DNA of 64,000 nt from positions 18,119 to 82,118 of the forward strand of contig JBJXFL010000014.1 of the NCBI GenBank assembly GCA_046155405.1, written 5' to 3'. The translations under genes were made by a program, and so were the position numbers. The notes under the pieces were generated by a model. The model was given only the letters and a program-made list of their open reading frames with translations. It made no database searches and had not been told where the DNA came from. Shown here piece by piece: positions 38,094-58,516 of the stretch. The stretch comes from Bryobacteraceae bacterium (GTDB lineage: Bacteria > Acidobacteriota > Terriglobia > Bryobacterales > Bryobacteraceae). Position 1 is the stretch's first letter. Every line of letters starts with the position of its first letter.

Positions 38094-38360
38094 AGTTATT
38101 TCTGCCGACGCAGTTTCCCGGCCTCGTTCCGCCCTGTTCCGCTGCAACTCTGCGCGGTACGTTCTTCTTGGTTTAGGGGGAGATGGACGAGCCGTCAGTG
38201 GAATCTGATCCGGCGCCTCCGAAAATCAATGTACTTCACAAATGCCCTAGGGCGATACTGTAGTATTCGCCAATACAGACGGCCGGGTCAAGAGAAAGTC
38301 GTATGACAGGTACTACACGGCGTCTATATTAAGAAATTTTTTTGATGGAGTCCCCCAACG

Positions 38361-39209
38361 CTAGCGGATTTTCCCTTCGACGAGCGGGACTTCGAAAACC
38401 TTCTCGTGCATGATGGGGCCGTGGCCGAAGTAGCCGGCTTCGCCGAATAATTCTCCGTGGTCGGCCGTAATGGTGATGTAGGTGTTTTCGGGCACGATGT
38501 CGAAGAGCTCTTCAACGACCCGATCCAGATATTCGACGGCCTTCACTTGCCGGTCCTGGAGTTCATCCAACTTCTTTTGATCGAAGAACTTGCCTTCTCC
38601 TTCGGTGGTGCCGGCGGTTACATCCTCATCAAGGTGCTTGAAGACGCCATGCACGCCGGAAACGCGGGGCCAAAGGTCGGGCGATTCATCGGGCAAGGCA
38701 TAAGGGTAGTGAGTTTCGCCCACATTTAACAAATGAAACGACGGGCGCTCTTCGGAGAATGTCATTTCCTTGACCATGGCGCGCATGTCGTTATGTTTCG
38801 GCATGAGTTTGTAGGAATCGAAGCCGTGATTGAGCAGCGTCTTGGGGTTCAGTACGGGTAACGAGACTTTAGCGTGGGTGGTGTAGCCGAGCGAATCCCT
38901 TAAATATGAAGGAAGATTCATTTTAGGAATTAGAGATTTGAATTCCAGTTTTTCCTGGCCGAGGCGCTCGGCGAATTTCAGGAAATCCTGCTTGTAGTAC
39001 TCGGACGCATAGACGTTTTGCGGGCTGGCATGGGGCAGCAGGCCCATCATGAGATTGTAGTGGGACGGGGCGGTCCAAGAGGCATACGACCAGCGTCTTT
39101 CGGTCTGTCCCAATTTCTGCATTACCTTCGGATTCGCCTTCATAAACGAATCAAAACGGCAACTGTCAAGAATGACCAGGACGTAATTGTTCCCCTTCGG
39201 CGTTGGCAT
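38361..39209 (-). CDS. Alkaline-phosphatase-superfamily (sulfatase/phosphodiesterase-like) hydrolase
   Basis: VLVILDSCRFDSF metal-ligand region, SWTAPSHYN nucleophile region, ITADHGELFGEAGYFGHG. The DNA is visibly AT-richer than its flanks. It is divergent from the synthase operon. Confidence 0.78.
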   Translation of the reverse strand: MPTPKGNNYVLVILDSCRFDSFMKANPKVMQKLGQTERRWSYASWTAPSHYNLMMGLLPHASPQNVYASEYYKQDFLKFAERLGQEKLEFKSLIPKMNLPSYLRDSLGYTTHAKVSLPVLNPKTLLNHGFDSYKLMPKHNDMRAMVKEMTFSEERPSFHLLNVGETHYPYALPDESPDLWPRVSGVHGVFKHLDEDVTAGTTEGEGKFFDQKKLDELQDRQVKAVEYLDRVVEELFDIVPENTYITITADHGELFGEAGYFGHGPIMHEKVFEVPLVEGKIR

Positions 39210-39658: not shown

Positions 39659-40558
39659 ATGAACTTCGGGATAGTTGTCCTATCTCCCGCCGGATTTCCT
39701 AACCCACGACTAGCCGCCGCGGCGGCGGTCGCGGGCTTCAATGGTGGAATTTCGCTTGAATGCCTGAATGCGGCACAAGCGGAGGGACTTGAGAAACAAC
39801 TGCTGGCGAGCGGTCATCCGTTCACGCTGGCGATGGAGTCGCTAGCGGGCTGGCAGGGCGAGTTCGCGGCCCGGTTGGCGGGCAAGGGGTTGGAGCGGAT
39901 TGTCCTAACGTCGGGACAGGCGAGCGCGGTGGAAATCGCGGCCGGGAAGGCGCTGCCGGCGATAGTATTGGTGGAGGTGGTGACGGCCGACGAATCGGCG
40001 GAAGCGGTGGTGGCGGGCGCGGATGGGCTGATAGTCAAAGGCAACGAGAGCGGCGGCCGGGTAGGGGAAGAAACGACGTTTCTGCTGTTGCAGCGAATCA
40101 TCGGAAAAGTACCGGTTCCGGTTTGGGCGCGGGGCGGGATTGGGCTGCACACAAGCGCGGCTTGTCTGGCCGCGGGAGCGGCGGGCGTGGTGGTGGACTG
40201 GCAATTGGGATTGGTGGAAGAATCCAACCTGCCGGAGGCGGTAAAGGCGAAGCTGGCGAGAATGGACGGCAGCGAAACGTCGATTCTGGGTCAGGAATGT
40301 ACGGCGCGGTTTCGCGCCTATGCGCGGCCGAGCGAAACCGCGTTTCACGAGCTGCGAAAGTACGAAGAAACCCAAGGCCTCTATAGCGGCACCGCGCCGG
40401 AACAACTGGCCGCGTGGCGCGGCAAAGTGGGTGAGCGGGCCGGACGCGGAGAACTTCTGCTGGTGGGTCAGGACGGGGCGTTCGCACCGGTTTTCGCGGA
40501 AAACCATCGGACCGTGAAGAGCGTTTGCCAGGCGCTGTTGCGCAATGCCAGCCGGCAG
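39659..40558 (+). other. Domain: NMO/FabK-like TIM-barrel domain 1 (ER-like, atypical)
   Basis: aa 1-300: ...GLIVKGNESGGRVGEE...VPVWARGGIGLHTSAACLAAGAAGVVVDWQL. It has GGR where domain 2 and FabK/PfaD-type reductases have GGH. Boundaries are approximate. Confidence 0.6.
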
Positions 40559-43500
40559 GTGCGGGTGGCGGCAAGGCAAGACGCGTTCCGGGAAGGCGGA
40601 CCGCTGACCGAGTCCCAGGGGACGCGATATCCGATTCTGCAGGGCCCGATGACGCGGGTGAGCGACCGGGCCGATTTTGCGCTGGCGGTCGCCGATGGCG
40701 GCGGATTGCCGTTTTTGGCGCTCGCCCTGATGCGAGGTCCGGCGGTCGGAAAGCTACTAGCCGAAACGAAGGAAAAACTGGGTACGAAGCCGTGGGGAGT
40801 GGGTATCCTGGGATTCGTGCCGAAAGAGTTGCGGGACGAGCAGTTGGCCGAGGTGAAGAAGTGTTTGCCGCCTTTCGCGGTGATCGCCGGCGGCCGGCCG
40901 GACATGGCCAAGGAATTTGAGAAAGACGGCGTACAGACGTATCTGCACGTTCCGTCGCCCGAATTGCTGCGAAACTTTCTCGAGTCCGGCGCCCGGCGAA
41001 TCATTTTCGAAGGCCGGGAGTGCGGCGGGCACGTTGGACCGCGGTCGAGTTTCGTGCTGTGGGATCAGATGGTCCGGGTGATTCTGGCGCATCTGGCGGG
41101 TCCGAAGGCGAGCAAGCCCGAGGATTACAATTTCGTTTTCGCGGGCGGCATTCACGATGCGCTGTCGACGGCGATGACGGCGGCGATAACGGCGCCGTTG
41201 GCCGAGCGCGGCGTGAAGACGGGCGTACTGCTGGGCACGGGGTATCTCTTCACCCACGAAGCGGTCACTTCGGGCGCGATCAGCCGGACATTTCAGCAGG
41301 AAGCCGTCCGGTGCAGCCAGACGATTCTGGTGGAGAGCGGCGTCGGGCACGCCACGCGCTGCGCGAATACGCCGTTTGGCGATCTGTTCAACGGGGAGAA
41401 GCGCCGCCTTTCCAAGGAAGGCGCTCCGAAGGAAGAGATCCGGGAGAAGCTGGAAGGCTTGAATCTGGGCCGGTTGCGCATCGCCTCGAAGGGCGTGGAG
41501 CGCCGGAAACGCCCCGACGGCACCTCATTCTACGAGGAAGTGAACGCAGAGACGCAGCGGCTGGAAGGGATGTTCATGATCGGCCAGGTGGCCGCCCTGC
41601 GCAACAGCGTGGTGACGGTGGCCGATTTGCATGCCGAGGTCGTGCGCGGCGGCAACATTTTGCGGGCGCGGCTGGAGGAGTTGCTGGCCGAAGCGCGGAA
41701 AATCGCCGGTGAGCACAACGGCAATGACGTGGCGATCGTGGGCCTGTCGGCGGTGTTTCCGCAGGCGAACGACGCGGATACGTTCTGGCAGAACATTCTG
41801 CACAAGCGCAGCGCGATTACCGAGGTGCCGAAAGAGCGCTGGGACCTCGACGTATATTTCGATTCCGATCGCCGGGCCCGCGACAAGGTCTATTCGCGTT
41901 GGGGCGGATTCATGGGCGACTTCGAATTCGACCCGATGCGGTTCGGCATGCCGCCGGCGTCGGTACCGTCGATCGAACCGATGCAGCTCATCATGCTCGA
42001 AATGGTGCGGCGCGCGTTGGCCGACGCCGGCTACGACCAGCGAAAGTTCAATCGCGAACGGACGGCCTGCATTGTGGGTACTGGCGGCGGCGTAGGCGAG
42101 TTGGGTCTGGGATACGGTTTCCGGTCAATGGTTCCGCACTACGTGGATTACGCGGGCGGAACGCTCGAGGATTCGCGGACGCTGATAGAGGCGATCGGCG
42201 GGAACCTGCCGGAGTGGACGGAAGATTCTTTCGCGGGGCTTTTGCTGAACGTCGTTTCGGGCCGGGTAGCGAACCGGTTTGACTTTGGCGGCACGAACTA
42301 CATTGTGGACGCGGCGTGCGCGACGGCGCTGGCGGGCCTGCGGTCGGCGGTGACGGAGTTGCAAACCGGATCGAGCGATGTGGCGGTGGCGGCGTCGGCC
42401 GACATGATGCAGTCGCCTTTCGGCTACCTCTGTTTCAGCAAGACGCAAGCCCTTTCGCCCACGGGGCTATGCCGTACGTTTGACGACAAAGCGGACGGGA
42501 TCGTGATCAGCGAAGGCTTCAGCGTGGCGATTCTGAAGCGGCTGGAAGACGCCATTCTGGATGGCGATCACGTTTATGCGCTGGTGAAGGCGGTGGGCGC
42601 GTCCTCCGACGGCAAGGACAAGGGGCTGACGGCTCCGCGGCCGTTGGGGCAGATGCGGGCGCTTGAGCGCGCCTATGCGAAATCGGGGATTGACCCGGCC
42701 ACGGTGGGTTTGATTGAAGCGCACGGGACGGGAACGGTGGTGGGCGACCGGACCGAGACGGAGGCGTTAACCGCGTTCTTCTCGCGGTCGAGCGCGCCGC
42801 GGCACACGATAGCGCTGGGCTCGGTGAAGAGCCAGATCGGACACACGAAGTGTTCGGCCGGATTCGCCGGACTGGTGAAGGCGGCGTACGCGTTGCGGCA
42901 CAAAGTTTTGCCGCCGACGATCAACGTGACGACGCCGAATGCGAAGGCAAATTGGGATGAGAGCCCGCTGTTCATCAATACGGAACCGCGGCCGTGGATG
43001 GCGCGCCTGGACGGGGCGTCACGTTCGGCCGGCGTAAGCGCGTTCGGGTTCGGCGGAACGAATTTCCATACCGTACTCAGCGAGTATCGCCCGGTCGATG
43101 GGATTGCCGACGACACGTGTCCGTTGCGCGAATGGCCCGCCGAACTGTTCCTGATGCGCGGGAAAACGGCGGCGGATGTCACGGGGACGATCAACCTGCT
43201 GTTGAAAGAAATCGAAGCGGGCGCGCAACCGGCGTTATGGGATCTGGCGGCGGCGGTGTATTGGGATAAGGGCCGGGGGGAAGGCGACGTGCGGCTAGCG
43301 ATCGTGGCCGAATCGTTGACGGACCTGACGGCGAAATTGAAAGCGGCGCGGCCGCACGTGGAAGCGGGGAAGGCCTACAAGGATCCGAAGGGAATTTACT
43401 TCTCGGCGGAGGGTTTGGGGAAAGACGCAAAGGTGGCGTTCCTGTTCCCGGGCCAAGGTTCGCAATCGCCGGACATGCTGCGGGATTTGTCGGTCGCCTG

Positions 43501-46500
43501 GCCGGCGGCGCGCCGCGTGTTCGAACGGGCGGATGCGGCGTTGGGCATGCAGTTGGGGCGTCCACTCAGCTCCTACATTTTCCCGGCGCCCGCATTCCGG
43601 GACGAAGTGCGGAAGGCGAACGAGGAAGCGATCAAGGCTACCAACGTGGCGCAGCCGGCGCTGGGCGCGGCGGACCTGGCGATGTTCGGAGTTTTGGAGA
43701 TGTTGGGAATTACACCCGACATGGCCGGCGGCCACAGCTACGGCGAGTTTGCGGCGTTGGCCGCGGCCGGCGCGATGACGGTGGAAGAGTTGACGCGGAT
43801 CAGCGAGTTGCGGGGTCGCGTCATTATTGAAAACGCCAGTGGAGAGCTGGGGACGATGGCCGCCGTGGACGCCGGTGAGGCGGCGACGGTGGAAGGCATC
43901 GCCGGATTGAGCGATGTGTGGCTGGCGAATCTGAACGCGCCGAAGCAGACGGTGATCGCCGGAACGGCGAAGGGCATTGACGATGCCGTGGCGCAATTGA
44001 AGAGCAAGGGCGTCGCGGCGAAGAAAATCGCGGTGGCGTGCGCGTTCCACTCGAAACTGGTGGCGGGCGCGAAAGAGCCGCTTGCGAAGGGCTTGGCCGA
44101 TGTAGCGATGCGTCGCCCGCGTTTCCCGGTTTATTCGAACACGACCGCGCGGCCGCATGGCGACGACGTGGATGCGATACGCGTTTCGCTGGCCGAGCAT
44201 CTGGTACGGCCGGTGCGGTTTGCCGATGAGCTGGCGGCGATGCATGACGCCGGCGCGCGGATCTTTATTGAATGCGGACCGGCCAAGGTGCTGACCGGTC
44301 TGGCGGCGAAAACGTTGGAGGGGCGGCCGTTCCACGCGGTCGCGATGGACCAGTCCGGAAGAAACGGGCTGGTGCAGATGGCGCACGCGCTGGGGCAGTT
44401 ATCCACCGCGGGCGTGCCGTTCTACGCGTACCGGCTTTTTGAAGGCCGCGTGCTGAAGTCGACGACGCTGGCCCGGTTGCTGGCGGAGAGTAAGCCGGAA
44501 CCGATCACCGCCACGGCGTGGGTGGTTCGGGCCGGCCGGTCCTTTCCGGCGGCGGAATACCAGCGTATTTCCGCGAATGGAATTGTTAGAGGCAATGTAG
44601 AAGGCCGCGCGAGCGGTCAACCGAAACTATTGAGCGCCGCGCCCCCGGCGGCGACTCCAATCGAGGTGGCAATGAACTCCCCAAGAATGACCGCGTCTAA
44701 TGGCGCGACCGCTCCGGGCGAGACGGCGGCAGTATCGGCGCCGGTCGCATCCGCAGTGGTAGCAACTCCGCAACCCGCGGCCGTTGCATACACCGAACCC
44801 ATGATGCCGCTCGGAGGCAGCGTTATGGAACAGGTGGTGCAAGGCCATCACCAGTTAATGAGCCGGTTCCTGGACACGCATCGGACCGTCATGATGAGCA
44901 TGATGAGACAGGTCGACTCCATGCCGGCGGCGAGTGTAAGGATGACGGCGGTATCGCAGCCGATGCCGGCGCCTCGTCCCCAATACAGCCAGCCGCCGGC
45001 GGCGGCCCCGGCACCGGCACCGGTCCACGCGCCGGCCGTTCCGGTGGCGGCGCCCGCGCCAGTGACAGTAGCCGTGGTCGCGGCGCCTGTCGCCGTTGCC
45101 GCTCCATTGGCCGCTCCGGCTCCGTCCGTCGCGGCACCTGCCGCTCCGGCCCGGGTTGGGAAGGCGGAAATTACGGAAAAGCTCGTGAATCTGGTCAGCC
45201 AGCGCACCGGTTATCCGCCGGAGATGTTGGGTCTGGATCAGGATCTGGAAGCGGATCTGGGAGTGGATTCCATCAAACGCGTCGAGATCTTCGGCGCACT
45301 CCAGAACGAGTCCCTGCTGCCGGCGTCGGCGGTGGAAGGCGAAATTGAAAGCCTATCCAAGCTGAAGACGTTGCAGGCGATTATCGACTGGGTGGAAGCC
45401 AAGATTATGGAACTGGCCGGAGGTGCCCCGAAGGTCGCGGCATTATCGGTCCCTAATCAGGCGCCGGCTGATGAGTCAACGGCCCAGCCGGCGCCGGTAG
45501 TGAGTGCCGTAACGGAGATTACGCGGTTGCGAGTGGAAGCCGCGGATGCGCCGTTGGGGGAGGAGCGTCGCGCTCCTCTTCCGAAGTTCGTATTGATCAC
45601 CGACGACGGCGGAGGCGTGTCCTCGGCCGTCTCGGCGAAGTTGAATTCGCTTGGCATTCGAAACCAGATTCTGCGCGGAGAGCTGTCCGATCCGGTGGTG
45701 GCGCATTCGATGGCGGTGAGTTTGCGGGAGACTAACGGGGCCGTGGAACATCTGATCCACCTGAAATCGCTGGCGCCCGGAGCGCCCGGCGAGTATCTGG
45801 CGCTGAGTAAACGGCTGGAGAGCGATTTGATGCCGCTCTATCTGTTGACTCGCGAATTCGCTTCCGATATGCGGAAGGCGGAGGGCGGGGGCACCGTCTT
45901 GTCGGTGACCAGGCTAGGCGGAATATTTGGATTCGGCACGACGCCCGGCAAGGCGCATCCCATTGCATCGGGAAGCGTGGCGGGGTTCGCGAAGTCGGTG
46001 GCGCGGGAGTGGCCGGAGACGGCCGTCCGGGCGGTCGACTTCGACGCCGGAACGCCCGAAAGCGAGATTGCCGACCGCGTGGTAGCCGAGCTATTGACCC
46101 GCGACGTTTACTCCGAAGTGGGATACCTGAACGGCAAGCGGCAGCGGTTGCTGACCAAGGCGACGCCGGTGGGCCCGGAGCTCGGACCGGTGCGTTTGAC
46201 CAAAGATTCCATTGTGCTGGTGACGGGCGGCGCGCGCGGGATTACGGCGGAGATTACGTTGGAACTGGCCGAGTATTGCCAGCCGAAATTTATCCTGCTC
46301 GGCCGTTCTCCGCTGCCGCCGGAAAAGCGCGGCGACGAAATCGACAATGTAACCGACGACCGGAAGCTGAAAGCGCTGATTATCGACCGGTTGCAGACGA
46401 TCGGCCAGCGCCCGACGCCGGCGATCGTGGAAGGCGAGTTGCGCCGGATTAAACGGGAACGTGAAATTCTGGCGAATATCGCCGCCATCCGCGCGACCGG

Positions 46501-47962
46501 CGCGACGCTGGAATATCACGCGGTCGATGTGTGCGACACCGTCGGTTTCGGCGCCCTGATCGACCGCATCTACGAAAAACACGGAGCGATCGACGCGGTC
46601 ATCCATGGTGCGGGCGTGATTGAAGATAAGCTGCTGGAAGATAAGACGGCGGAATCCTTCCGGCGCGTGTTGGAGCCGAAGGTGCTGGGCGCCGAGGTTT
46701 TGGCGCGGAAACTGCGGCCGGAATCGCTTCAGTTGCTGGTGTTTTTCTCTTCCGTTTCGGCGCGCTACGGCAACCGCGGACAGAGCGACTATTCGGCGGC
46801 GAACGAAGTACTGAACAAGCTGGCGCACTACTTGAACGCGCATTGGCCGGGCCGCGTGGTTTCCTTCGACTGGGGCCCGTGGAAGACCGAAGGCGGGATG
46901 GTGTCGGCGCAGTTGGCGGAGCGATTCGCCAAGGCCGGCGTGGAGATGATCGATCCTCCAGGCGGGCGGCGCGCTTTCCTGCGGGAAGTGCTGCACGGAA
47001 CGAAAGAAGATTTCGAAGTGGTATTCGGCGGGCCGCTACGCTTGGAACAGCAGTCGCCGGGCACGGCCGTGAAACGCGCCGCGGCCGCTCCGCAGGTTTT
47101 GCTGGGCACGATGAACGCCGGCACGGGCAAGCTGGATTTCACCTTTGAAAGCAGCGCTAAACGGCATATATATCTGTGTGACCACGAGATCGACGGCCGC
47201 CCGGTGATGCCGATGGCGATGATGCTCGAACTGTTCGCCGAGGTGGCCGCGGTGTGCCAGCCGGGAACCAAGCTGCGAACCGTCCGGGACATGAAACTGT
47301 TCCGCGGCATCACGCTCAAGTCCCGCGAAGATTCGGTGGCGGTGCAGGTGTTGGCCGAACCGTCCGGCGGCGCGATTCGGGTGTCGGTGCGCGCCAAGGG
47401 CGGCGCGCCCATACACTATGAAGCGCTGGTGGAAACCGGCTCCGCCGCTCCGGCCGTTCGGGCGCCGAAATTGGAATTGCGCAATGCGCGGCCGCTGCCG
47501 CTGACGGTGGCGGAGGCTTACGAAGCGTGGTTGTTCCACGGACCGCTGTTCGCGGGCATTGTCGATGTCGAAGCCGTGGGCGACAATGGAATTGTGGGAA
47601 CTCTGCGTCCGTCGCTGCCGGCTACATTGTTCGCCGATCCGCGGCAGGGCGAGTGGGCCGCCGACCCGGTGGTGATCGATAGCGGCTTGCAGATGATTAT
47701 TCTCTGGGCGCGCACGATCATCGACCAGACGCCGCTCCCCTCGCGGCTCGGCTGCTATCACGCGTACGCTCCGCTGCACGCCGCGGCCATCCGTTGCGAG
47801 ATCGAAGTGGATCATCGCCCGGGCAGCCCGACGCTGCGCTGCCAACTGCGCTTCTTCAATGAACGCGGCGACTTTTTAGGCTGGATGGAAGATATGGAAG
47901 TAACAGCAAGCAAGGCCCTGAACCGGACGGCGAAAATCAGCCATGCTGGAACCGGACAATAA
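39659..47962 (+). CDS. Iterative type-I PKS / PUFA-synthase-like megasynthase: NMO-like, ER, KS, AT, ACP, KR, DH
   Basis: 2767 aa. The motifs were read directly from the translation; see the domain features below. The stop overlaps the next start (TAATG at 47960-47964). Confidence 0.95.
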   Translation: MNFGIVVLSPAGFPNPRLAAAAAVAGFNGGISLECLNAAQAEGLEKQLLASGHPFTLAMESLAGWQGEFAARLAGKGLERIVLTSGQASAVEIAAGKALPAIVLVEVVTADESAEAVVAGADGLIVKGNESGGRVGEETTFLLLQRIIGKVPVPVWARGGIGLHTSAACLAAGAAGVVVDWQLGLVEESNLPEAVKAKLARMDGSETSILGQECTARFRAYARPSETAFHELRKYEETQGLYSGTAPEQLAAWRGKVGERAGRGELLLVGQDGAFAPVFAENHRTVKSVCQALLRNASRQVRVAARQDAFREGGPLTESQGTRYPILQGPMTRVSDRADFALAVADGGGLPFLALALMRGPAVGKLLAETKEKLGTKPWGVGILGFVPKELRDEQLAEVKKCLPPFAVIAGGRPDMAKEFEKDGVQTYLHVPSPELLRNFLESGARRIIFEGRECGGHVGPRSSFVLWDQMVRVILAHLAGPKASKPEDYNFVFAGGIHDALSTAMTAAITAPLAERGVKTGVLLGTGYLFTHEAVTSGAISRTFQQEAVRCSQTILVESGVGHATRCANTPFGDLFNGEKRRLSKEGAPKEEIREKLEGLNLGRLRIASKGVERRKRPDGTSFYEEVNAETQRLEGMFMIGQVAALRNSVVTVADLHAEVVRGGNILRARLEELLAEARKIAGEHNGNDVAIVGLSAVFPQANDADTFWQNILHKRSAITEVPKERWDLDVYFDSDRRARDKVYSRWGGFMGDFEFDPMRFGMPPASVPSIEPMQLIMLEMVRRALADAGYDQRKFNRERTACIVGTGGGVGELGLGYGFRSMVPHYVDYAGGTLEDSRTLIEAIGGNLPEWTEDSFAGLLLNVVSGRVANRFDFGGTNYIVDAACATALAGLRSAVTELQTGSSDVAVAASADMMQSPFGYLCFSKTQALSPTGLCRTFDDKADGIVISEGFSVAILKRLEDAILDGDHVYALVKAVGASSDGKDKGLTAPRPLGQMRALERAYAKSGIDPATVGLIEAHGTGTVVGDRTETEALTAFFSRSSAPRHTIALGSVKSQIGHTKCSAGFAGLVKAAYALRHKVLPPTINVTTPNAKANWDESPLFINTEPRPWMARLDGASRSAGVSAFGFGGTNFHTVLSEYRPVDGIADDTCPLREWPAELFLMRGKTAADVTGTINLLLKEIEAGAQPALWDLAAAVYWDKGRGEGDVRLAIVAESLTDLTAKLKAARPHVEAGKAYKDPKGIYFSAEGLGKDAKVAFLFPGQGSQSPDMLRDLSVAWPAARRVFERADAALGMQLGRPLSSYIFPAPAFRDEVRKANEEAIKATNVAQPALGAADLAMFGVLEMLGITPDMAGGHSYGEFAALAAAGAMTVEELTRISELRGRVIIENASGELGTMAAVDAGEAATVEGIAGLSDVWLANLNAPKQTVIAGTAKGIDDAVAQLKSKGVAAKKIAVACAFHSKLVAGAKEPLAKGLADVAMRRPRFPVYSNTTARPHGDDVDAIRVSLAEHLVRPVRFADELAAMHDAGARIFIECGPAKVLTGLAAKTLEGRPFHAVAMDQSGRNGLVQMAHALGQLSTAGVPFYAYRLFEGRVLKSTTLARLLAESKPEPITATAWVVRAGRSFPAAEYQRISANGIVRGNVEGRASGQPKLLSAAPPAATPIEVAMNSPRMTASNGATAPGETAAVSAPVASAVVATPQPAAVAYTEPMMPLGGSVMEQVVQGHHQLMSRFLDTHRTVMMSMMRQVDSMPAASVRMTAVSQPMPAPRPQYSQPPAAAPAPAPVHAPAVPVAAPAPVTVAVVAAPVAVAAPLAAPAPSVAAPAAPARVGKAEITEKLVNLVSQRTGYPPEMLGLDQDLEADLGVDSIKRVEIFGALQNESLLPASAVEGEIESLSKLKTLQAIIDWVEAKIMELAGGAPKVAALSVPNQAPADESTAQPAPVVSAVTEITRLRVEAADAPLGEERRAPLPKFVLITDDGGGVSSAVSAKLNSLGIRNQILRGELSDPVVAHSMAVSLRETNGAVEHLIHLKSLAPGAPGEYLALSKRLESDLMPLYLLTREFASDMRKAEGGGTVLSVTRLGGIFGFGTTPGKAHPIASGSVAGFAKSVAREWPETAVRAVDFDAGTPESEIADRVVAELLTRDVYSEVGYLNGKRQRLLTKATPVGPELGPVRLTKDSIVLVTGGARGITAEITLELAEYCQPKFILLGRSPLPPEKRGDEIDNVTDDRKLKALIIDRLQTIGQRPTPAIVEGELRRIKREREILANIAAIRATGATLEYHAVDVCDTVGFGALIDRIYEKHGAIDAVIHGAGVIEDKLLEDKTAESFRRVLEPKVLGAEVLARKLRPESLQLLVFFSSVSARYGNRGQSDYSAANEVLNKLAHYLNAHWPGRVVSFDWGPWKTEGGMVSAQLAERFAKAGVEMIDPPGGRRAFLREVLHGTKEDFEVVFGGPLRLEQQSPGTAVKRAAAAPQVLLGTMNAGTGKLDFTFESSAKRHIYLCDHEIDGRPVMPMAMMLELFAEVAAVCQPGTKLRTVRDMKLFRGITLKSREDSVAVQVLAEPSGGAIRVSVRAKGGAPIHYEALVETGSAAPAVRAPKLELRNARPLPLTVAEAYEAWLFHGPLFAGIVDVEAVGDNGIVGTLRPSLPATLFADPRQGEWAADPVVIDSGLQMIILWARTIIDQTPLPSRLGCYHAYAPLHAAAIRCEIEVDHRPGSPTLRCQLRFFNERGDFLGWMEDMEVTASKALNRTAKISHAGTGQ
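40622..41668 (+). other. Domain: PfaD/FabK-type FMN enoyl reductase
   Basis: aa 322-670: YPILQGPMTRVSD..., IIFEGRECGGHVGPRSS, FVFAGGIHD...GVLLGTGYLFTHEA. Confidence 0.75.
41723..43093 (+). other. Domain: ketosynthase (Cys-His-His intact)
   Basis: aa 689-1145: DVAIVGLSAVFPQA, VDAAC(887)ATALAG, EAH(1022)GTGT, IGH(1062)TKCSAG. Confidence 0.9.
43430..44338 (+). other. Domain: acyltransferase (malonyl-type)
   Basis: aa 1258-1560: FLFPGQGSQ, GGHS(1360)YGE, VACAFHS. Confidence 0.85.
45164..45403 (+). other. Domain: single integrated ACP
   Basis: aa 1836-1915: LGLDQDLEADLGVDS(1871)IKRVEI, preceded by a ~180-aa Ala/Pro/Val-rich linker (aa 1655-1835). Confidence 0.85.
45581..46993 (+). other. Domain: ketoreductase (structural plus catalytic subdomains)
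   Basis: aa ~1975-2445: VLVTGGARGITAEI, HGAGV, SSVSARYGNRGQSDY(2378)SAAN. Confidence 0.8.
47096..47908 (+). other. Domain: PKS-type (double hot-dog) dehydratase
   Basis: aa ~2480-2750: LCDH(2509)EIDGRPVMPMAMMLEL (HxxxGxxxxP) and DPVVIDSGLQ (DxxxQ). Confidence 0.8.
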
Positions 47963-50900
47963 TGAGCGCGAAAGAATCGAGACCCCCTTCCGGGCATTCC
48001 ATTCACGGGGATGTCGCCATTGTCGGCCTGGCTTGTACCTACCCCGGAGCGCGTAACGCCGGCCAGTTCTGGCGGAACATCGTCAACAAACTGAGCGCGA
48101 TCGCCGACGTTCATCCGGACCGCTGGGATCCGGCCGTTTTTTACGATCCCGATCCCGCCAAGGAAGACAAGATCTACTGCAAGCAGGGCGGCTACCTGCC
48201 CAATTCGTTCACGTTCAATCCGGCGAAAGCGGGCGTGCCGCCGTCGGCCATCGAGGGCGCCGAGCCGGACCATTACCTGATGCTCCGGACGATGTACGAA
48301 GCGTTGGACGACGCGGGTTATCTGAAGAAAACCTTCGACCGGGACCGGGTGAGCGTCATGATGGGCAAGGGCAACTACCTGGCGCCCGGCTTGACATGGA
48401 TCATGCACCGGACGGTGGTTTCCGAGATGGTGATGCGTATCGTGGAGTCGTTGCGCCCGGACTTCACCGGAGACGAACTTACGAAGATCAGGCAGTCGAT
48501 TCAGCGGAAGCTGCCGAAGCTCAATACGGAGAACGCGGCGGGGCTGATCCCGAACATCAGCACCGGGCGGGTGGCCAACCGGCTGGACTTCATGGGCGCG
48601 AACTACACGATCGACGCGGCCTGCGCGTCTTCGTTATTAGCGACGGAGAACGCCCTGCACAGCCTGCTGATCGGCAAGGACGATATGGTGCTGGCCGGCG
48701 GGTCGCACCTGTTCGCGCATATTCCGTTTCTGAGCGTTTTCGACAAGACGCGGGCGATGTCGGCGACGTCCACCATTCGCCCCTACGATGCGAACGCCGA
48801 CGGGACGATGTCCGGCGAGGGCATTGGCGTGATGGTGCTGAAACGGCTGGCCGACGCCGAGCGCGACGGCGACCGGATCTATGCGGTGATCAAGGGCGCC
48901 GGATCGGCCTCCGACGGCAAGGCAAAAGGCGTGATGGCGCCGCGCGTGGAGGGAGAAGAACTGGCCCTGCGCCGGGCGTTGTCGATGGCCGGCGTGGCGC
49001 CGGAAACGGTGGAACTGATAGAAGGCCACGGCACGGGGACGCCCGTTGGCGATGCGACCGAGATTGAAGCGCTGCACCGGGCGTACGGCGAAAACAGCGA
49101 GGGCCGGCGCACCATTGCGTTGGGCAGCGTGAAATCGAATATCGGTCATGCGATGCCCGCGGCCGGAGCGGCCGGGCTGATTAAGACGGCGCTTGCGCTT
49201 TATCACAAAGTCCTGCCGCCGACGTTGAATGTAGTTGAACCCAACGCCCTGCTGCAGCGGCCGGAATCGCGTTTTTATTTGAATACGGAAGCGCGGCCCT
49301 GGATCCACCGCAAGGATGGCGCGCCGCGCCGGGCGGGCGTGAACGCTTTCGGATTCGGCGGCATCAACGCCCACGTGGTATTGGAGGAGTACCGGCCCGC
49401 GGCGGAGACCGGCCAGCCGACGCTGCTTCGCGAATGGGACCAGGAACTGTTCGTATTTGAAGGGGCGACGCGGCCGGAGTTGATGGCTTCGCTCGACCGG
49501 GTGCGCGGCTATGTGCTATCCGTCGAAGGCGTATCGACCGCCGATCTGGCCTTTACCCTGAACACGGCGCTGACCGGACAGGCGGAACGGCTGGCGATCA
49601 TAGCGTCTAATTTCGAAGAACTCGCCCAACGCATCGACCGCGCCAAACGCAAGCTGGAAGACCCGGATTGTTCACAGATCCGCGAACGCCAGGGTATCTA
49701 CTATTTCGAGAGCCCGGAACTGCACAACGGCAAAGTCGCCTTCCTGTTCCCGGGCGAAGGGGCGCAGTATGTCAACATGCTGTCGGACCTTTGCATCCAC
49801 TTTCCGGAGGTCCGGAACTGTTTCGATACGGCCGATACGGCGAAGAAGAACGGCGCTCCGGTATCGAGCGTCGTGTTCCCGGCGCCGTCGCTGACGCCGG
49901 AGGACGAAGCCGCGGCCGAAGCCGAACTTTTCTCCATTGAACGCGCCACGGAGACGGTTCTGACGGCCGACGGAGCGATGTTCCGGCTGATGGAAAAGCT
50001 GGGGCTGCGGGCGCACATGATGAGCGGCCATTCGGCCGGCGAGTGGATCGCGATGGCGGCGTCCGGGATGCTGGATGTCGACACGTTCATCGGCTCGATG
50101 GAACGGCTGGAAACGATGTACCGCGATGTCGCGGCGGACTCCGAGATTCCGCGGATGGCGATGCTGGCCGTTGGCGCGGGAAAAGAACGCGTGGCCGAAT
50201 TGGCTTCGCAGGCCGGTGTCAAGATCGACCTGGCGAACGACAACTGCCCCCATCAGACCGTGATTGTGGTGGAGCCGGCGCATACCGACCGCGTGGTGGA
50301 GCACTTCCTGACGAGCGGCGTTTTCATCGAAAAACTGCCCTATGACCGCGGTTACCACACGCCCGCGTTCACCTACATTTGCGATCCGCTACGCAAGTTT
50401 TTCGCCTCCTTGGATTTGAACGCACCGAAGGTGCCGGTGTATTCCTGCACCACCGCCGAACTGATTCCGGAGGATCGCGAGGGCATTCTGGACGTGGTCG
50501 CCAATACCTTCGCCAAGCCGTTGATCTTCCAGGACACAATCCGGAAGATGTACGACGACGGCGCGCGGATCTTCGTTGAACTTGGGCCGCGCGGTAACCT
50601 GACGGCTTTCGCCGACGATATTTTGCGCGGGCGGATGCACCTGTCCGTACCGATGGACCAGTTCCGCCGGCCGGGTTTGCTGGGATTATGCCACGGGCTG
50701 GGCCTGCTGGCCGCGGCCCATGTGCCGTTGGCGCTCGTGGGGTTGTACGAACGGCGCCAGCCGCGCCGCCTCACCCTGGATGCGAAGGCCGATACGGTGC
50801 TGCCGGAAGAGCGGCAGCCGGGCAGTATTCAAGTTTCGCTCTGCTATTCGGTGCTCGAATCTCCGCCGCCGGAGATGATGCGGTCAATGGCCGCCATCGC

Positions 50901-52923
50901 GTTGCAAAAGGAGCCCGCCGTCCGTCCGCCGGCCACCGCGCCGCCGCCGGCGGAGGTGTTGGAAACACCGGCTCCGGTGCCGATCACGCCGCTCGCGGAG
51001 GTCGCGCAGAGCTCGTTCGAAACGCCGTCGTACTACTATGAGCCACAGCAGGCGGAATATGTAGACGCCTCCGCCGGCCTGCCGGTGGAAGCCGGCACGC
51101 TGCTGATGCACGAACATTTCTCGTTGATGGACGATTTTCTGCGCACGCAGGAGACCGTGATGTCCGGCTTTCTGGCCGGTGGCATGTCGTATTCCGGCGG
51201 TCCGTACCTGGAGCCGCGCGAGGAAGAAATGCCCGCGCATGCCGCCGAATGGGAGACGGTCCCGGACGTGAGGGAGGAGCCGATGCTGGCGCATATCGAA
51301 ATCGCCGAGCATACGCCGCTCACGTCGATGTCCATGTTTGTAACGCTGGATCTGGCGCATCACAAGTATCTGGAAGATCACTGCCTGTACTTTGAAGGTT
51401 CCGACGCCGACCAGCAAGGCAATCGCATTCTGGCGATGCCGCTCACGGGAAGCCTGGAACTGATGGCCGAGGCCGCGCTGCATCTGGCGCCGGGTGAGCG
51501 CGTGATCGCCATCCGGAAGGCGCAGGCGCTGCGGCCGGTGAATGTGGAGCGCGGCGCGGCTCCGGCCCGCATTCGTTTGAACATGCGGCGGCAGGGCGCC
51601 GATATCCGGATCGGACTGCACTCGGAGCGGGGCGACCTGTTGACCGAAGCGGTGGTGGTGGTGGCCCCGGACTTTGAACCGGCGCCGGCTCCGGAACCGC
51701 TTACGCTGGAAAATCCGAAGCGTCCGACGTGCCCGCTCAATGAAGTCTATTCGACGCATCGTATGTTCCATGGCCCGCGTTTTCAGGGCATTCAGGATAT
51801 AGAGAAGGTCGGCGGCAACGGGTTGATCGCGCGGCTGCGGATTCTACCGAACACCGATTGTTTCGGCTCCACGGCGGCACCCGGTCTGATTTTGGATCCG
51901 TTTCTGTTTGACGCCGCCGGACAGTTGGTGGGCTACTGGCCGATCGACAATCTACCCGATGGATTCGTGCTATTGCCTATCCGTTTGGGCGACGTGGCCA
52001 TATATGGACCGTCACCCGCGCCCGGCACCGAGCTTGAGTGCCGTTTGTGGGTACGCAATGTTTCCCATCGTCAGTTGTCCGCCGATTTCGACGTATTGCT
52101 GCCGGATGGAACGGTTTGGCTGCGCGTGAAGGGTTGGACCGATTGGCGCTTCCACTGGGAGCGGCGCTTCTATGACTTCTGGCGCTTTCCGAATGAGTAT
52201 TTCAATGGGCGTCAGATTGAATCGCCGGCGCTCACGGCGCGCGGGATACATTGCCGCATTTTGGATCCGATGACGGAAGTGGAGAAAACCGGGCTTTCGG
52301 AGACGGTATGGACGCGGATGATTCTGGAGCGCGGGGAACTCGCCGAGTACCTTGGCATTCAGGACGACGCGCGGCGGCTGCCGTTTCTTTTCCGGCGCGC
52401 GATCGCCAAGGATGCCACGCGCGGCTGGCTGGCCGAGAACGGCCGCAGTCGGGTTTACCCGGCGGATGTCGTTTTGTACGATTTGCCGGGTGAATCGTAT
52501 GACGCCCGGGGCGCCTGGCGCGGCGTGGGCGAGACGCTGCATACGGCCGCCGCCTATGACAGCCTATTCGCGGTCGGCGCCGTTGGCCCGACGCGGCTGA
52601 CTATCGTACTGCGTGAAGTTACGGATGGGGAGCAACCCCTGGAAATGGCGTTCGCACCGGAGGAGCGGGAGTGGATTCAACGGCTCGCCAAACCCGATGA
52701 ATGGACCGCGCGGGCGACCGCCGCGAAAATGGCGGTGGCGAAGTGGCTGCGGCCGGATCTGGCGGACGATGAGTTTTGGACGACCCTGTTGATTCCGCAA
52801 TTGAACGAGAGCACCGGAGTTCTGGCGGTGGCCGATCCGGGATCGGCGGTAAACGCGGAAGACACGGTTTCAGTGATTACGCTGCGCGATGGCAAATTTG
52901 TCATGGCGATCGCGACAAACTAA
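47962..52923 (+). CDS. Second megasynthase: KS, AT, DH, C-terminal PPTase-like (apparently degenerate) domain
   Basis: 1653 aa; see the domain features below. It has no ACP or KR of its own. Confidence 0.95.
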   Translation: MSAKESRPPSGHSIHGDVAIVGLACTYPGARNAGQFWRNIVNKLSAIADVHPDRWDPAVFYDPDPAKEDKIYCKQGGYLPNSFTFNPAKAGVPPSAIEGAEPDHYLMLRTMYEALDDAGYLKKTFDRDRVSVMMGKGNYLAPGLTWIMHRTVVSEMVMRIVESLRPDFTGDELTKIRQSIQRKLPKLNTENAAGLIPNISTGRVANRLDFMGANYTIDAACASSLLATENALHSLLIGKDDMVLAGGSHLFAHIPFLSVFDKTRAMSATSTIRPYDANADGTMSGEGIGVMVLKRLADAERDGDRIYAVIKGAGSASDGKAKGVMAPRVEGEELALRRALSMAGVAPETVELIEGHGTGTPVGDATEIEALHRAYGENSEGRRTIALGSVKSNIGHAMPAAGAAGLIKTALALYHKVLPPTLNVVEPNALLQRPESRFYLNTEARPWIHRKDGAPRRAGVNAFGFGGINAHVVLEEYRPAAETGQPTLLREWDQELFVFEGATRPELMASLDRVRGYVLSVEGVSTADLAFTLNTALTGQAERLAIIASNFEELAQRIDRAKRKLEDPDCSQIRERQGIYYFESPELHNGKVAFLFPGEGAQYVNMLSDLCIHFPEVRNCFDTADTAKKNGAPVSSVVFPAPSLTPEDEAAAEAELFSIERATETVLTADGAMFRLMEKLGLRAHMMSGHSAGEWIAMAASGMLDVDTFIGSMERLETMYRDVAADSEIPRMAMLAVGAGKERVAELASQAGVKIDLANDNCPHQTVIVVEPAHTDRVVEHFLTSGVFIEKLPYDRGYHTPAFTYICDPLRKFFASLDLNAPKVPVYSCTTAELIPEDREGILDVVANTFAKPLIFQDTIRKMYDDGARIFVELGPRGNLTAFADDILRGRMHLSVPMDQFRRPGLLGLCHGLGLLAAAHVPLALVGLYERRQPRRLTLDAKADTVLPEERQPGSIQVSLCYSVLESPPPEMMRSMAAIALQKEPAVRPPATAPPPAEVLETPAPVPITPLAEVAQSSFETPSYYYEPQQAEYVDASAGLPVEAGTLLMHEHFSLMDDFLRTQETVMSGFLAGGMSYSGGPYLEPREEEMPAHAAEWETVPDVREEPMLAHIEIAEHTPLTSMSMFVTLDLAHHKYLEDHCLYFEGSDADQQGNRILAMPLTGSLELMAEAALHLAPGERVIAIRKAQALRPVNVERGAAPARIRLNMRRQGADIRIGLHSERGDLLTEAVVVVAPDFEPAPAPEPLTLENPKRPTCPLNEVYSTHRMFHGPRFQGIQDIEKVGGNGLIARLRILPNTDCFGSTAAPGLILDPFLFDAAGQLVGYWPIDNLPDGFVLLPIRLGDVAIYGPSPAPGTELECRLWVRNVSHRQLSADFDVLLPDGTVWLRVKGWTDWRFHWERRFYDFWRFPNEYFNGRQIESPALTARGIHCRILDPMTEVEKTGLSETVWTRMILERGELAEYLGIQDDARRLPFLFRRAIAKDATRGWLAENGRSRVYPADVVLYDLPGESYDARGAWRGVGETLHTAAAYDSLFAVGAVGPTRLTIVLREVTDGEQPLEMAFAPEEREWIQRLAKPDEWTARATAAKMAVAKWLRPDLADDEFWTTLLIPQLNESTGVLAVADPGSAVNAEDTVSVITLRDGKFVMAIATN
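48007..49389 (+). other. Domain: ketosynthase (Cys-His-His intact, so not a chain-length factor)
   Basis: aa 16-476: DVAIVGLACTYPGA, IDAAC(221)ASSL, EGHGTGT, IGHAMPAAG. Confidence 0.9.
49735..50661 (+). other. Domain: acyltransferase-like (GHSAGE type)
   Basis: aa 592-900: FLFPGEGAQ, SGHS(691)AGEW, YDRGYHTPAF in place of the xAFHS motif of synthase 1. Confidence 0.8.
51283..52161 (+). other. Domain: PKS-type dehydratase with an insertion in the His motif
   Basis: aa ~1108-1400: LEDH(1140)CLYFEGSDADQQGNRILAMP (an 11-residue insertion between His and Pro) and LDPFLFDAAGQ. Confidence 0.7.
52279..52920 (+). other. Domain: 4'-phosphopantetheinyl-transferase-like fold, catalytic residues not conserved
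   Basis: aa ~1440-1653 align segment by segment to the stand-alone PPTase at 57761: LHTAAAYDSLFAVGAV..RLTIVLRE vs LSHTEGIAVLLVAV..VGVDVERP, and EWTARATAAKMAVAKWL vs RIWTVKESLVKAVG. The Asp of the DxE motif and the Glu of the KE motif are replaced. Confidence 0.5.
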
Positions 52924-52963: not shown

Positions 52964-53263
52964 GTGGAAATTCTTACACGAGATTCGGTTCGAGAACAAT
53001 TGATAGGGATGTTGAAGGACGCCCGGGAAGACTGGGACAGCTCGATCGTGGTGACGGACGCAACCGGCCTGTTTCAGGAGCTGGGTTTTGAGTCCATCGA
53101 CGCGGTGGGCCTCAGTTCCACCCTGGAAATGAACTACGACCAGACGCTCCCCTTCCCGGAGTTTATGAACAAGGCGAAGACGCAGGGATGGAAAGATATC
53201 ACGGTCGGTTCGCTCGTCGATTTCCTGATGGAGAACCTGAAAAACTCACCGGAGAGGAAGTAG
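52964..53263 (+). CDS. Stand-alone acyl carrier protein
   Basis: 99 aa, GTG start after AAGGACAAGG. Contains LGFES(I)DAVGL phosphopantetheine-site-like motif in a four-helix-sized protein. Confidence 0.78.
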   Translation: MEILTRDSVREQLIGMLKDAREDWDSSIVVTDATGLFQELGFESIDAVGLSSTLEMNYDQTLPFPEFMNKAKTQGWKDITVGSLVDFLMENLKNSPERK

Positions 53264-54871: not shown

Positions 54872-55744
54872 ATGCCCAAGGCACCCGTTAACGGTATTGA
54901 TATCCACTACGTTCGCCGTGGTGAAGGCAGGGATGTCATCCTGCTGCACGGAGTCACCTCGTCGCTGGCGATGTGGTACAACGGCATTTACCCGAAGCTG
55001 TCCGAGAACTACCGCGTCACCGCCTATGACCTGCGCGGTCACGGACTGAGCGGGCTCACCCCTACCGGCTATACCTCTGCCGACATGGCCGAGGATCTGC
55101 TCGGGCTTTTGGATAGTCTCAAGATCGAGAAGGCCACCCTGATCGGCCACAGTTTCGGTGGAGCGATCGGCCTCCACATGGCATTGCTGCATCCGGACCG
55201 GGTGCACGGGGTGATCATGCTCGATAGCGGCCTCGCCTGCCTACGCTATCTTCGGATTATCGCCGATTGGCAGGGTTGGAAGGGACGTCCCGAGGAGTTC
55301 CAGAAGAAGGGGCTGAGTTTGGAGCAGTTCCTGGAGCTGGATTCCAAACAGGACGTGACCGCGGTGATTCGCCATGGACTGAATATGCCCCGGGTGGGCG
55401 GATTCAGAAAGGGCCAATCCGGAATGACGCCGCGGCTGCAGCGCTTACTCGATGAAACCAAACTCGGCTATGAGTTCCGGGACGTCGCCGGCATGACCGA
55501 GGAACGCTTGCGCACCGTCCTAACGCCGGTACTAGCCCTTTACGGGGAAACGTCGCCGTATCAAAAGATGGCCAAACACCTGAATGGACTCCTTCCCAAC
55601 TGCCGGCATGAGGTTCTGCCCGGCACCGGCCACTTCTCCGCGATCCATCGGCCGGAACTGGTGGCGCCCGTGATTCAGGAGTTCGTCGCGGATCCGATCG
55701 ACTACGTGAAGAATGCGCCGGATTCCGTGGCGGTCGCACCCTAG
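54872..55744 (+). CDS. Alpha/beta-fold hydrolase (candidate thioesterase or acyl hydrolase)
   Basis: VILLHGVTSS oxyanion region, nucleophile elbow GHSFGG, and a C-terminal GTGHFSAIHRPE catalytic-His region. Confidence 0.85.
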   Translation: MPKAPVNGIDIHYVRRGEGRDVILLHGVTSSLAMWYNGIYPKLSENYRVTAYDLRGHGLSGLTPTGYTSADMAEDLLGLLDSLKIEKATLIGHSFGGAIGLHMALLHPDRVHGVIMLDSGLACLRYLRIIADWQGWKGRPEEFQKKGLSLEQFLELDSKQDVTAVIRHGLNMPRVGGFRKGQSGMTPRLQRLLDETKLGYEFRDVAGMTEERLRTVLTPVLALYGETSPYQKMAKHLNGLLPNCRHEVLPGTGHFSAIHRPELVAPVIQEFVADPIDYVKNAPDSVAVAP

Positions 55745-57760: not shown

Positions 57761-58516
57761 TTGATTGCATCCTTACAGCAAGGGCAAGCGCACCTGTGGC
57801 GTCTGCCCTTGGCTGAATTTGAAGAAGGCCGGCTTCTGGAAGCCGGCCTTCCGCTTTTGAGCGGTGAGGAGCGGGAGCGCTATGCGCGAGCGCTACATCC
57901 GCGGTTTCGCGCACTGCTTCTGGCCGGCCGGTTGCTGATGCGGTGCGCGCTGTCGTCGTACGGTTCTCGCGGGCCGGCGGAATGGCGGATCGAAGTGGGC
58001 GAGAACGGTAAGCCATTCGTTTCCAACAGCCCCCAGGGCTTGACCGTGAATCTCTCGCATACGGAGGGGATCGCGGTCCTGCTGGTCGCCGTCGCCGCTT
58101 CCGTGGGGGTGGATGTGGAACGGCCCTGGCGCATATTGGACCCCCTCGCCACCGGCCGGCCGGTGTTCTCCGACCGGGAGATGACGATGCTCCGTCAGAT
58201 GACCGATGAACGGGAGAGGCGTGAGCGCTTTTACCGGATCTGGACCGTTAAGGAATCCCTGGTGAAAGCCGTCGGCGCCGGGATAACCGGCGATCTTCGC
58301 CATGTCACCTTCGATGTTTCAAACCCTTCGCCCCGGCTGCTGGAAACCGTACCGGCGTTGGCCGCTCCCGCCGACGCCTTTTTCTTTGCAAAGACGCTGC
58401 CGGAAGGTTTTCTTGTGTCCGGGACCATCTTCCCGTTTCAACCGGTTTCGGCTATTCTGGACATTGACGCTATCGCCCCGATACGCGGAATGATACGCGA
58501 AGCGATTGGTAGTTGA
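57761..58516 (+). CDS. Sfp-type 4'-phosphopantetheinyl transferase
   Basis: NLSHTEGIAVLLVA, VGVDVERP, FYRIWTVKESLVKAVG. A TTG start is inferred because there is no nearby ATG. Confidence 0.82.
   Translation: MIASLQQGQAHLWRLPLAEFEEGRLLEAGLPLLSGEERERYARALHPRFRALLLAGRLLMRCALSSYGSRGPAEWRIEVGENGKPFVSNSPQGLTVNLSHTEGIAVLLVAVAASVGVDVERPWRILDPLATGRPVFSDREMTMLRQMTDERERRERFYRIWTVKESLVKAVGAGITGDLRHVTFDVSNPSPRLLETVPALAAPADAFFFAKTLPEGFLVSGTIFPFQPVSAILDIDAIAPIRGMIREAIGS

Follow-up and report, generated by a model that had tools for sequence, protein, structure and literature searches.

A predicted pseudo-enoyl-reductase/enoyl-reductase pair at the N-terminus of a widespread class of bacterial lipid synthases

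We analyzed a 64,000-nucleotide stretch of DNA from a Bryobacteraceae bacterium (GenBank assembly GCA_046155405.1, contig JBJXFL010000014.1, positions 18,119 to 82,118 of the forward strand; hereafter, the window), in which a large type I synthase, here called synthase 1, begins with two enoyl reductase (ER)-like domains in tandem, D1 and D2. With modest confidence, we propose that D2 is the working ER of this synthase and that D1 is a non-catalytic, built-in dimer partner. An earlier model-made reading of the same DNA (the original prediction) had placed two tandem domains of the nitronate monooxygenase (NMO)/FabK kind before a KS-AT-ACP-KR-DH series, with GGR in place of GGH in the first of them. 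Both statements were confirmed, the tandem by Pfam, phmmer and AlphaFold2 and the GGR by HMMER, and all the motif strings that it quoted were found where it had placed them (Table 1).

Fold and active-site residues of the two domains

Scanned separately, as the original prediction had suggested, each half passes the gathering threshold of the Pfam NMO model (PF03060, 28 bits), aa 1-320 with 62.6 bits and aa 321-690 with 42.1 bits. In phmmer, FabK of T. maritima (5gvh), the best solved relative of both halves, was matched with E 2e-12 by aa 1-320 and with E 3e-13 by aa 321-690. A 62-sequence family profile running through D1 matches FabK residues 26-306, which comprise the barrel and the lid, with E 5e-30. 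AlphaFold2 modeled D1 alone with a pLDDT of 96.6 and a pTM of 0.93, and the top Foldseek matches of this model were all FabK (5gvh, 2z6i; TM 0.78-0.80, E ~3e-17). With the FabK equivalog model TIGR03151, D1 scored 59.9 bits and D2 69.4 bits, both under the cut-off of 453.1 bits; judged by this model, neither domain is a FabK orthologue. The original prediction had also seen a PfaD-like pattern in both domains, and on this point our results differ: they are FabK/NMO-like. A PfaD-type identity was ruled out, as no PfaD-family model was among the NCBIfam matches, and PfaD and trans-AT ER structures (4yx6, 6lkc, 4cw5) reached a TMt of 0.42-0.61, compared with 0.84-0.87 over about 370 columns for FabK against the model of both domains. 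PfaD has an additional subdomain at its N-terminus (about 80 aa), which was found neither in the model of D1 nor in that of the didomain.

The functional roles of FabK-type residues were taken from PMC13311796. There, the Met of motif I contacts the flavin; the His of motif III (xEAGGH) is proposed to be catalytic; the Glu in the same motif, together with the Gly residues of motif III, GGI and G-T, binds ribitol and phosphate; and the lid Met (M276 in T. maritima FabK, tmFabK) is needed for FMN binding. D2 has all of these residues (M331, E454, H458, G496-G497, G526-T527 and M640), and each is kept in at least 244 of the 256 full D2 domains in our census. Its motif III is nearly uniform, reading ECGGHVG in 118 of the best 120 protein matches and ESGGHVG in the remaining two. 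In keeping with these residues, we consider D2 highly likely to be a working FMN-dependent enoyl reductase. Compared with D1, it is longer at two places by about 9 inserted residues each, one past the GGH motif and the other between GGI and GT.

The alignment with FabK, another analysis that the original prediction had suggested, gave the opposite picture for D1: FMN residues that are kept in D2 are lost there. In the HMMER alignment, D1 "AGADGLIVKGNESGGRVGEETTFLLLQ" sits gap-free on FabK "AGADAVIAEGMESGGHIGEVTTFVLVN", with ESGGRVGE falling column for column on ESGGHIGE. Because there is no gap, Arg134 is homologous to the catalytic His; this Arg (codon CGG, nt 40058-40060) occupies the catalytic His column. 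Among 339 homologous D1 domains, this column holds R in 178, W in 80, L in 22, F in 17, S and K in 7 each, Y and Q in 5 each, and others; 337 of the 339 have a residue other than His. Met is nearly absent at D1 positions 9-13, where motif I would lie. The Asp and Gln standing at the place of the phosphate-binding G-T-x are present in 320 (D180) and 322 (Q182) of the 339 domains, and the lid Met column is taken mostly by L (127), P (86) and A (49), with M in 11. Some of the old site is kept: E130 and G133 in 335 domains each, and G159/G160 in 337, with both motif III glycines (G132-G133) retained. Compared with a catalytically competent FabK-type ER, D1 thus lacks the His, the motif I Met, the GT and the lid Met. 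Since a near-invariant Asp stands at a phosphate-binding Gly position and both flavin-contacting Met residues are lost, D1 is unlikely to bind FMN.

Taking this together, we think it likely that D1 is not an enoyl reductase, and very probably it is non-catalytic. The original prediction had offered that the N-terminal copy might be non-catalytic or differently specific, for example oxygenase-like. The residue census supports the former, and an oxygenase-like role is unlikely for a domain without a flavin site. Two D1 domains do have His in the catalytic column, one in a Phycisphaerae metagenome-assembled genome (MAG OFTM182, L038:10001-10945; RGNESGGHVG) and one in a protein fragment (P0162; KGHEAGGHVG). 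Because D-x-Q is kept and the Met of motif I is missing in both, they would be chance reversions rather than active copies.

Distribution and age of the pair

When aa 1-690 were compared with a protein collection, 5507 of the 8000 scored candidates were significant matches. The best 120 of these cover 76-100% of the N-terminal query, have the tandem, and are nearly all 1900-3200 aa long and alike in their Pfam set; MAGs of Bryobacteraceae and Terriglobia provided the closest homologues. When one genome per species was scanned, at least 582 relatives came up, from which 80 loci were kept for inspection. These loci belong to Acidobacteriota, Planctomycetota (Gemmata, Paludisphaera, Brocadia), Obscuribacterales/Melainabacteria, Chloroflexota, Entotheonellaceae/Tectomicrobia, Desulfobacterota, Nevskiaceae (Solimonas, Panacagrimonas), Actinomycetota, Elusimicrobia and Poribacteria. 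Apart from loci truncated at a contig end, all of them (78) have D1. Loss of D1 where a match starts only at query residue 81-124 was ruled out, as all such loci away from a contig edge have an open frame of at least 94 aa upstream. D1-like domains also make up 840 cluster representatives at 50% identity (E <= 1e-10). By these sequence searches, the D1-D2-KS N-terminus is found in thousands of proteins from at least ten phyla.

The original prediction had named no described synthase with an ER-ER-KS arrangement. That the arrangement is unusual was not supported: all the relatives that were inspected have the tandem, and an ER in cis is part of the synthase listing of Shulse and Allen (2011), discussed below. 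A rare architecture is thus ruled out by the protein, genome and cluster searches together with that listing. The architecture is common, and it can be called characterized only loosely, through the fatty-acid synthase activity that is reported for ArsA.

The two domains share 16% identity (hhalign probability 98.4%), from which the duplication or fusion that joined them would be ancient; BLASTP of D1 against D2 matched only a 30-aa region around GGH. In a maximum-likelihood tree, D1 (support 100/100), D2 (100/99) and the FabK/NMO proteins (99/96) form separate clades. A recent tandem duplication was ruled out by the low identity and these separate clades. The subtrees of the two domains agree with each other, each grouping L044 with L069; L010 with L036; L031 with L039 and L074; and the window with L005 and L038. 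Because the clades are separate and their subtrees congruent, the tandem would already have existed in the family ancestor. The tree is a three-way split that favors neither duplication nor fusion and places neither domain closer to FabK. Of additional note, the source genome (7.84 Mb in 256 contigs) also encodes a stand-alone NMO-family protein with an open frame of 358 aa (G000:C21:20194-21198, minus strand; locus L081), which scores 246.7 bits to PF03060 and lies far from D1 and D2 on a long branch.

D1 has changed faster than its neighbor, with tips about 3-4 times longer than those of D2. Across the sampled phyla, D1 domains are 32-47% identical to that of the window and have 12 invariant columns (46 sequences); the N-terminal third is poorly conserved, and the part from strand beta5 to the lid (aa 120-280) is well conserved. 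D1 is full-length in loci from at least ten phyla, and 62 genome loci showed no frameshifts or stops except for one in-frame stop. On this comparative evidence, D1 is under weaker but real constraint, and the two domains have traveled together since the ancestor.

Proposed role of the first domain

The AlphaFold2 model of aa 1-690, a didomain prediction that had also been suggested at the outset, has a pLDDT of 95.9 and a pTM of 0.95. As each domain has about 330 aa, such a pTM implies that their mutual arrangement is confidently fixed in the model, and the predicted packing of D1 on D2 is rigid. The short junction between them is conserved as PL..SHGTRYPI. FabK is known to function as a dimer whose active sites are independent and face opposite ways (PMC12921513), and PfaD and trans-AT ERs are homodimers as well (PMC13311796). 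Because the active sites of FabK are independent and face apart, one half of a FabK-like pair could die harmlessly.

Based on our findings, we propose the following scheme. D2 would carry out enoyl reduction, with FMN and NAD(P)H, for an iterative, fully reducing type I fatty-acid or polyketide synthase (PKS). D1 would be an ancient, divergent paralogue that has kept the FabK fold and lost flavin binding and catalysis. Packed rigidly on D2, it would act in cis as the partner subunit that FabK, PfaD and other free-standing ERs of this kind gain by homodimerizing; we infer that the D1:D2 packing reproduces the FabK dimer. Such a pseudo-ER/ER design would be a counterpart of psiKR/KR and KS/CLF.

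Several points weigh against this scheme. The evidence for packing consists of summary statistics of a model (pLDDT, pTM); the pTM of a monomer model is no proof of a physiological assembly, and the KS dimerizes the whole synthase anyway. What is known of D1 across the family comes from sequences and models. Furthermore, E130 and four phosphate-loop glycines survive in D1, so weak or altered binding of a flavin or nucleotide would be possible. The conservation of D1 also peaks on the former active-site face (K127-G-x-E130-x-G-G, G159-G160, D180-x-Q182, E188-S189, D203-G-S-E206, R219 and Q271-D272), where a new ligand or catalytic site is equally conceivable.

This last point raises the possibility that D1 has taken on a new function on the old face, either as an enzyme, such as an isomerase or hydratase working on the enoyl intermediate, or as a module that binds a ligand, such as a regulatory site for NAD(P)H or an acyl group. 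Its conservation is strongest in the lid and where strands beta5-beta7 end on the C-terminal side (E130, D180, Q182, E188, S189, E206, R219, Q271), the nearly invariant D-x-Q looks like a gained feature and not mere decay, and FabX, which was among the fold matches, indicates that other chemistry is possible on the same fold. However, the column that is catalytic in every characterized relative varies freely in D1 (R, W, L, F, S, K, Y, Q, V, P, A), no flavin site seems to be left, and conservation is lowest in the N-terminal half of the barrel, where motifs I and II for ring binding lie. The synthase, moreover, has a complete KS-AT-ACP-KR-DH-ER set without counting D1. We therefore regard a new function as unlikely, if still a serious alternative. 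Another possibility is that D1 mainly serves as a docking platform for synthase 2, the free ACP or some other partner, instead of as a dimer surrogate. The two synthases and the free-standing ACP of the cluster need to meet; PfaD-type ERs have an extra N-terminal subdomain that was proposed as a subunit contact site (PMC13311796); and the surface of D1 evolves fast, as partner-specific surfaces do. However, the predicted rigid packing on D2 already accounts for the retention of D1. In the type P systems described below, the partners differ (type III PKSs and a protein with DH and phosphopantetheinyl transferase [PPTase] domains), yet D1 is retained. A mainly docking role is in our view rather improbable, and docking as such would be compatible with both a dimer partner and a new function.

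The loss of catalytic and cofactor residues and the roughly 3- to 4-fold faster evolution of D1 relative to D2 could also be read as the decay of a duplicated ER that has no present function. Against this, D1 has been kept full-length across at least ten phyla with a single in-frame stop in the 62 genome loci, it has invariant columns and a model pLDDT of 96.6, and its divergence has run in step with that of D2 from the beginnings of the family. We consider a mere relic very improbable. On balance, a non-catalytic dimer partner beside a working D2 remains the reading that we prefer.

The gene cluster and its comparison with known systems

The features of the two domains and of the surrounding cluster are collected in Table 1.

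Table 1. Features of synthase 1 and its gene cluster; nucleotide positions are those of the window, aa positions those of synthase 1
Feature	Position	Strand	Basis
D1, aa 1-310, FabK-fold pseudo-enoyl-reductase (putative; TIM barrel and lid)	39659..40588	+	Pfam, profile, AlphaFold2
D1 motif I remnant LSPAGF; P-M-T with the FMN-contacting Met deleted	39680..39697	+	hhalign of D1 vs D2
D1 motif III KGNESGGRVG, aa 127-136	40037..40066	+	String located; HMMER alignment
D1 ARGGIGLH, aa 157 onward; phosphate-loop glycines G159-G160 kept	40127..40150	+	G159/G160 in 337/339
D1 VVVDWQL; D180-W-Q182 in place of FMN-phosphate-binding G-T-x	40187..40207	+	Profile alignment to FabK VQMGTRF
D1 lid segment LLLVGQDGAFA; Leu268 in the tmFabK Met276 column	40454..40486	+	Profile alignment
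D1-D2 junction, aa 308-322, 15 residues; ordered, no flexible linker (predicted)	40580..40624	+	Block pLDDT 94-98
D2, aa 313-672, intact FMN-dependent enoyl-ACP reductase domain (putative)	40595..41674	+	Pfam, phmmer, Foldseek, residue census
D2 motif I QGPMTRVSD, aa 328-336, Met331	40640..40666	+	M331 in 255/256
D2 motif III EGRECGGHVG, aa 451-460, catalytic His458 (CAC, 41030-41032)	41009..41038	+	H458 in 255/256, E454 in 255/256
D2 AGGIHD, aa 495-500, FMN phosphate loop	41141..41158	+	G497 in 256/256
D2 LLGTGYLF, aa 524-531, G526-T527, FMN phosphate	41228..41251	+	G526 in 255/256; T/S at 527 in 256/256
D2 lid segment GMFMIGQ, Met640 in the tmFabK Met276 column	41567..41587	+	M640 in 251/256
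Synthase 1, 2767 aa: psiER(D1)-ER(D2)-KS-AT-ACP-KR-DH	39659..47962	+	Open reading frame (ORF), Pfam, NCBIfam
KS of synthase 1, aa 689-1090	41723..42928	+	Pfam ketoacyl-synt N and C
AT of synthase 1	aa 1261-1562	+	Pfam
ACP of synthase 1, single	aa 1840-1884	+	Pfam
KR of synthase 1	aa 2185-2409	+	Pfam
PKS-type DH of synthase 1	aa 2487-2753	+	Pfam
Synthase 2, 1653 aa: KS-AT-DH and C-terminal tail	47962..52923	+	ORF, Pfam
Free-standing ACP	52964..53263	+	Pfam PP-binding
Alkaline-phosphatase-superfamily gene, type I phosphodiesterase-like	53267-54856	+	3-nt gap after free ACP
Alkaline-phosphatase-superfamily gene, sulfatase-like	38361-39209	-	Opposite side of synthase genes
Alpha/beta hydrolase of operon	54872..55744	+	Pfam; position as in Streptomyces plasmid cluster
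613-aa ORF between alpha/beta hydrolase and PPTase	55887-57728	+	No Pfam family at E <= 0.001
Sfp-type PPTase	57761..58516	+	Pfam ACPS and AASDHPPT_N

In Pfam order, synthase 1 has NMO twice at its N-terminus, followed by KS, AT, ACP, KR and PKS-type DH; it scores 1225.9 bits with the PfaA subfamily model TIGR02813 of NCBIfam (cut-off 1010.1). Its ORF overlaps that of synthase 2 by one base. The C-terminal 300 or so residues of synthase 2 (window 52000-52920) have no Pfam match, and the Sfp-type PPTase lies 5 kb downstream of this tail. The two alkaline-phosphatase-superfamily genes flank the synthase genes on both sides, and a gene of the TauE/SafE sulfite-exporter family is found at 37320-38147. 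Taken together, these three genes raise the possibility that the product may be a lipid with a sulfo- or phospho-modified head group.

Among the secondary lipid synthases catalogued by Shulse and Allen in 2011, types M, N and O consist of ER-KS-MAT-ACP(1-3)-KR, KS-AT-PPTase and ACP, and are listed from Frankia, S. avermitilis, Actinosynnema, Dinoroseobacter, Parvularcula, Gloeobacter and Chitinophaga (PMC3098273 File S1). From this domain order, an N-terminal ER fused in cis to the KS is a described architecture. The window has the same order as types M and O, with ER-KS-AT-ACP-KR(-DH), a KS-AT(-DH) gene and an ACP gene, and its core matches these types as assigned by gene and domain order. 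It differs in that gene 2 of types M/O is listed as KS-AT-PPTase, whereas the tail of synthase 2 is without a Pfam match; a single integrated ACP and the alkaline-phosphatase-superfamily genes beside the core also set it apart from the listing. Where Shulse and Allen draw one "ER" (PMC3098273), the window has the D1/D2 pair. Type P is represented by ArsA/ArsD of A. vinelandii, with ArsA listed as ER-KS-MAT-ACP-KR (PMC3098273 File S1); PMC3098273 and PMC4824345 report ArsA as the fatty-acid synthase that gives C22-C26 acyl chains for phenolic lipids. Clusters of type P (ars, phenolic lipid) have type III PKS genes (ArsB/ArsC) that lie between the synthase and the PPTase protein. No member of the type III PKS/chalcone-synthase family was found by Pfam among the neighboring ORFs of the window, so the cluster is not of type P.

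The pair can be read in relatives of these types. Beijerinckia indica ATCC 9039, of type P, has a complete ars-like operon on the 66.7-kb plasmid pBIND02 (L091:13707-26701). It encodes a 2674-aa synthase containing 2 ACPs, a pair of type III PKSs and a DH-PPTase protein of 629 aa, and next to it come genes for a glycosyltransferase and an ABC transporter. Its synthase starts with the D1/D2 tandem, both halves of which are above the NMO threshold, D1 reading KGHEAGGQVG and D2 FEGSECGGHTG. The tandem of type P was thus read from the Beijerinckia sequence, and ArsA of A. vinelandii was compared by its listed domain order alone. The linear plasmid of Streptomyces sp. NBC_01243 (L092:13674-28648) carries synthase 1, synthase 2, ACP and alpha/beta hydrolase genes in the order of the window, again with the tandem. 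The Streptomyces cluster is type M-like, and a glycosyltransferase and an S-adenosylmethionine methyltransferase come next, which suggests a decorated lipid product there. A literature search for a tandem ER or a degenerate first ER domain found none described, with incomplete coverage of the literature, so that this is an absence of evidence only.

We tentatively suggest, giving it slightly less than an even chance, that the catalogued N-terminal "ER" of ArsA-type synthases and of types M, N, O and P is an obligate pseudo-ER/ER didomain, in which a flavin-free, dead FabK paralogue replaces a dimer subunit in cis. If so, thousands of synthases from at least ten phyla would share a conserved pseudoenzyme module that has not been described before. 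The arrangement itself is the norm of a catalogued class, and any novelty may lie in recognizing the catalogued "ER" as a dead/live pair. This would correct the domain annotation of widespread, uncharacterized lipid synthases, in which one listed cis-ER would be such a pair; their hosts include soil Acidobacteriota, Planctomycetota, Obscuribacterales, Actinomycetota and Nevskiaceae, among others. Without it, automated annotation of biosynthetic gene clusters might register two reductases. The correction also bears on construct boundaries, on structure solution and on the engineering of ArsA-like fatty-acid synthases.

The window fits none of the canonical pfaABCD plan, which has a tandem ACP array, KS-CLF and two DH/I domains in PfaC, and a stand-alone PfaD; it has instead one integrated ACP, a KS-AT-DH synthase 2 and an ER in cis. 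PfaD and the trans-AT ERs belong to the same superfamily, catalyze the same reaction and serve PfaA-like synthases, but PfaD is a protein of its own, with the additional N-terminal subdomain mentioned above, whereas the ER of the window is part of the synthase. In the thraustochytrid ERb/ERc complex (PDB 9SDD; PMC13311796), two paralogous TIM-barrel ERs of one synthase are paired, as is predicted for D1 and D2, and ERb is insoluble and FMN-free without its heterodimer partner ERc (PMC13311796). ERb and ERc are, however, PfaD-type, 75-80% identical and separate polypeptides, both with His and FMN (PMC13311796), whereas the pair in the window is FabK-type, in a single chain and 16% identical, with one member apparently dead. 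The closest match by both sequence and structure is the FabK homodimer, which has the barrel-plus-lid fold common to D1 and D2 and whose motifs D2 retains. FabK consists of two identical subunits, whereas the window has two unlike copies in one chain, fused to a megasynthase. We would see in this pair a simple case, open to experiment, of a free-standing dimeric enzyme that has been incorporated into a megasynthase, and not a new kind of system. The KS/CLF of type II PKS and Pfa systems combines an active copy with a non-catalytic one in a pseudo-dimer of solved geometry. Similarly, the psiKR/KR subdomain pair of PKS/FAS ketoreductases, the geometry of which is also solved, reportedly joins an active and a degenerate copy that preserve a dimer-like architecture, as Keatinge-Clay and Stroud are said to have described in 2006. 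Both have other folds, so the analogy is mechanistic only, and the pseudo-dimer geometry of the window is inferred where theirs is solved. If our proposal is correct, the pseudo-ER/ER pair would, after psiKR/KR and KS/CLF, be the third case in megasynthases of a dimer fixed by duplication and inactivation.

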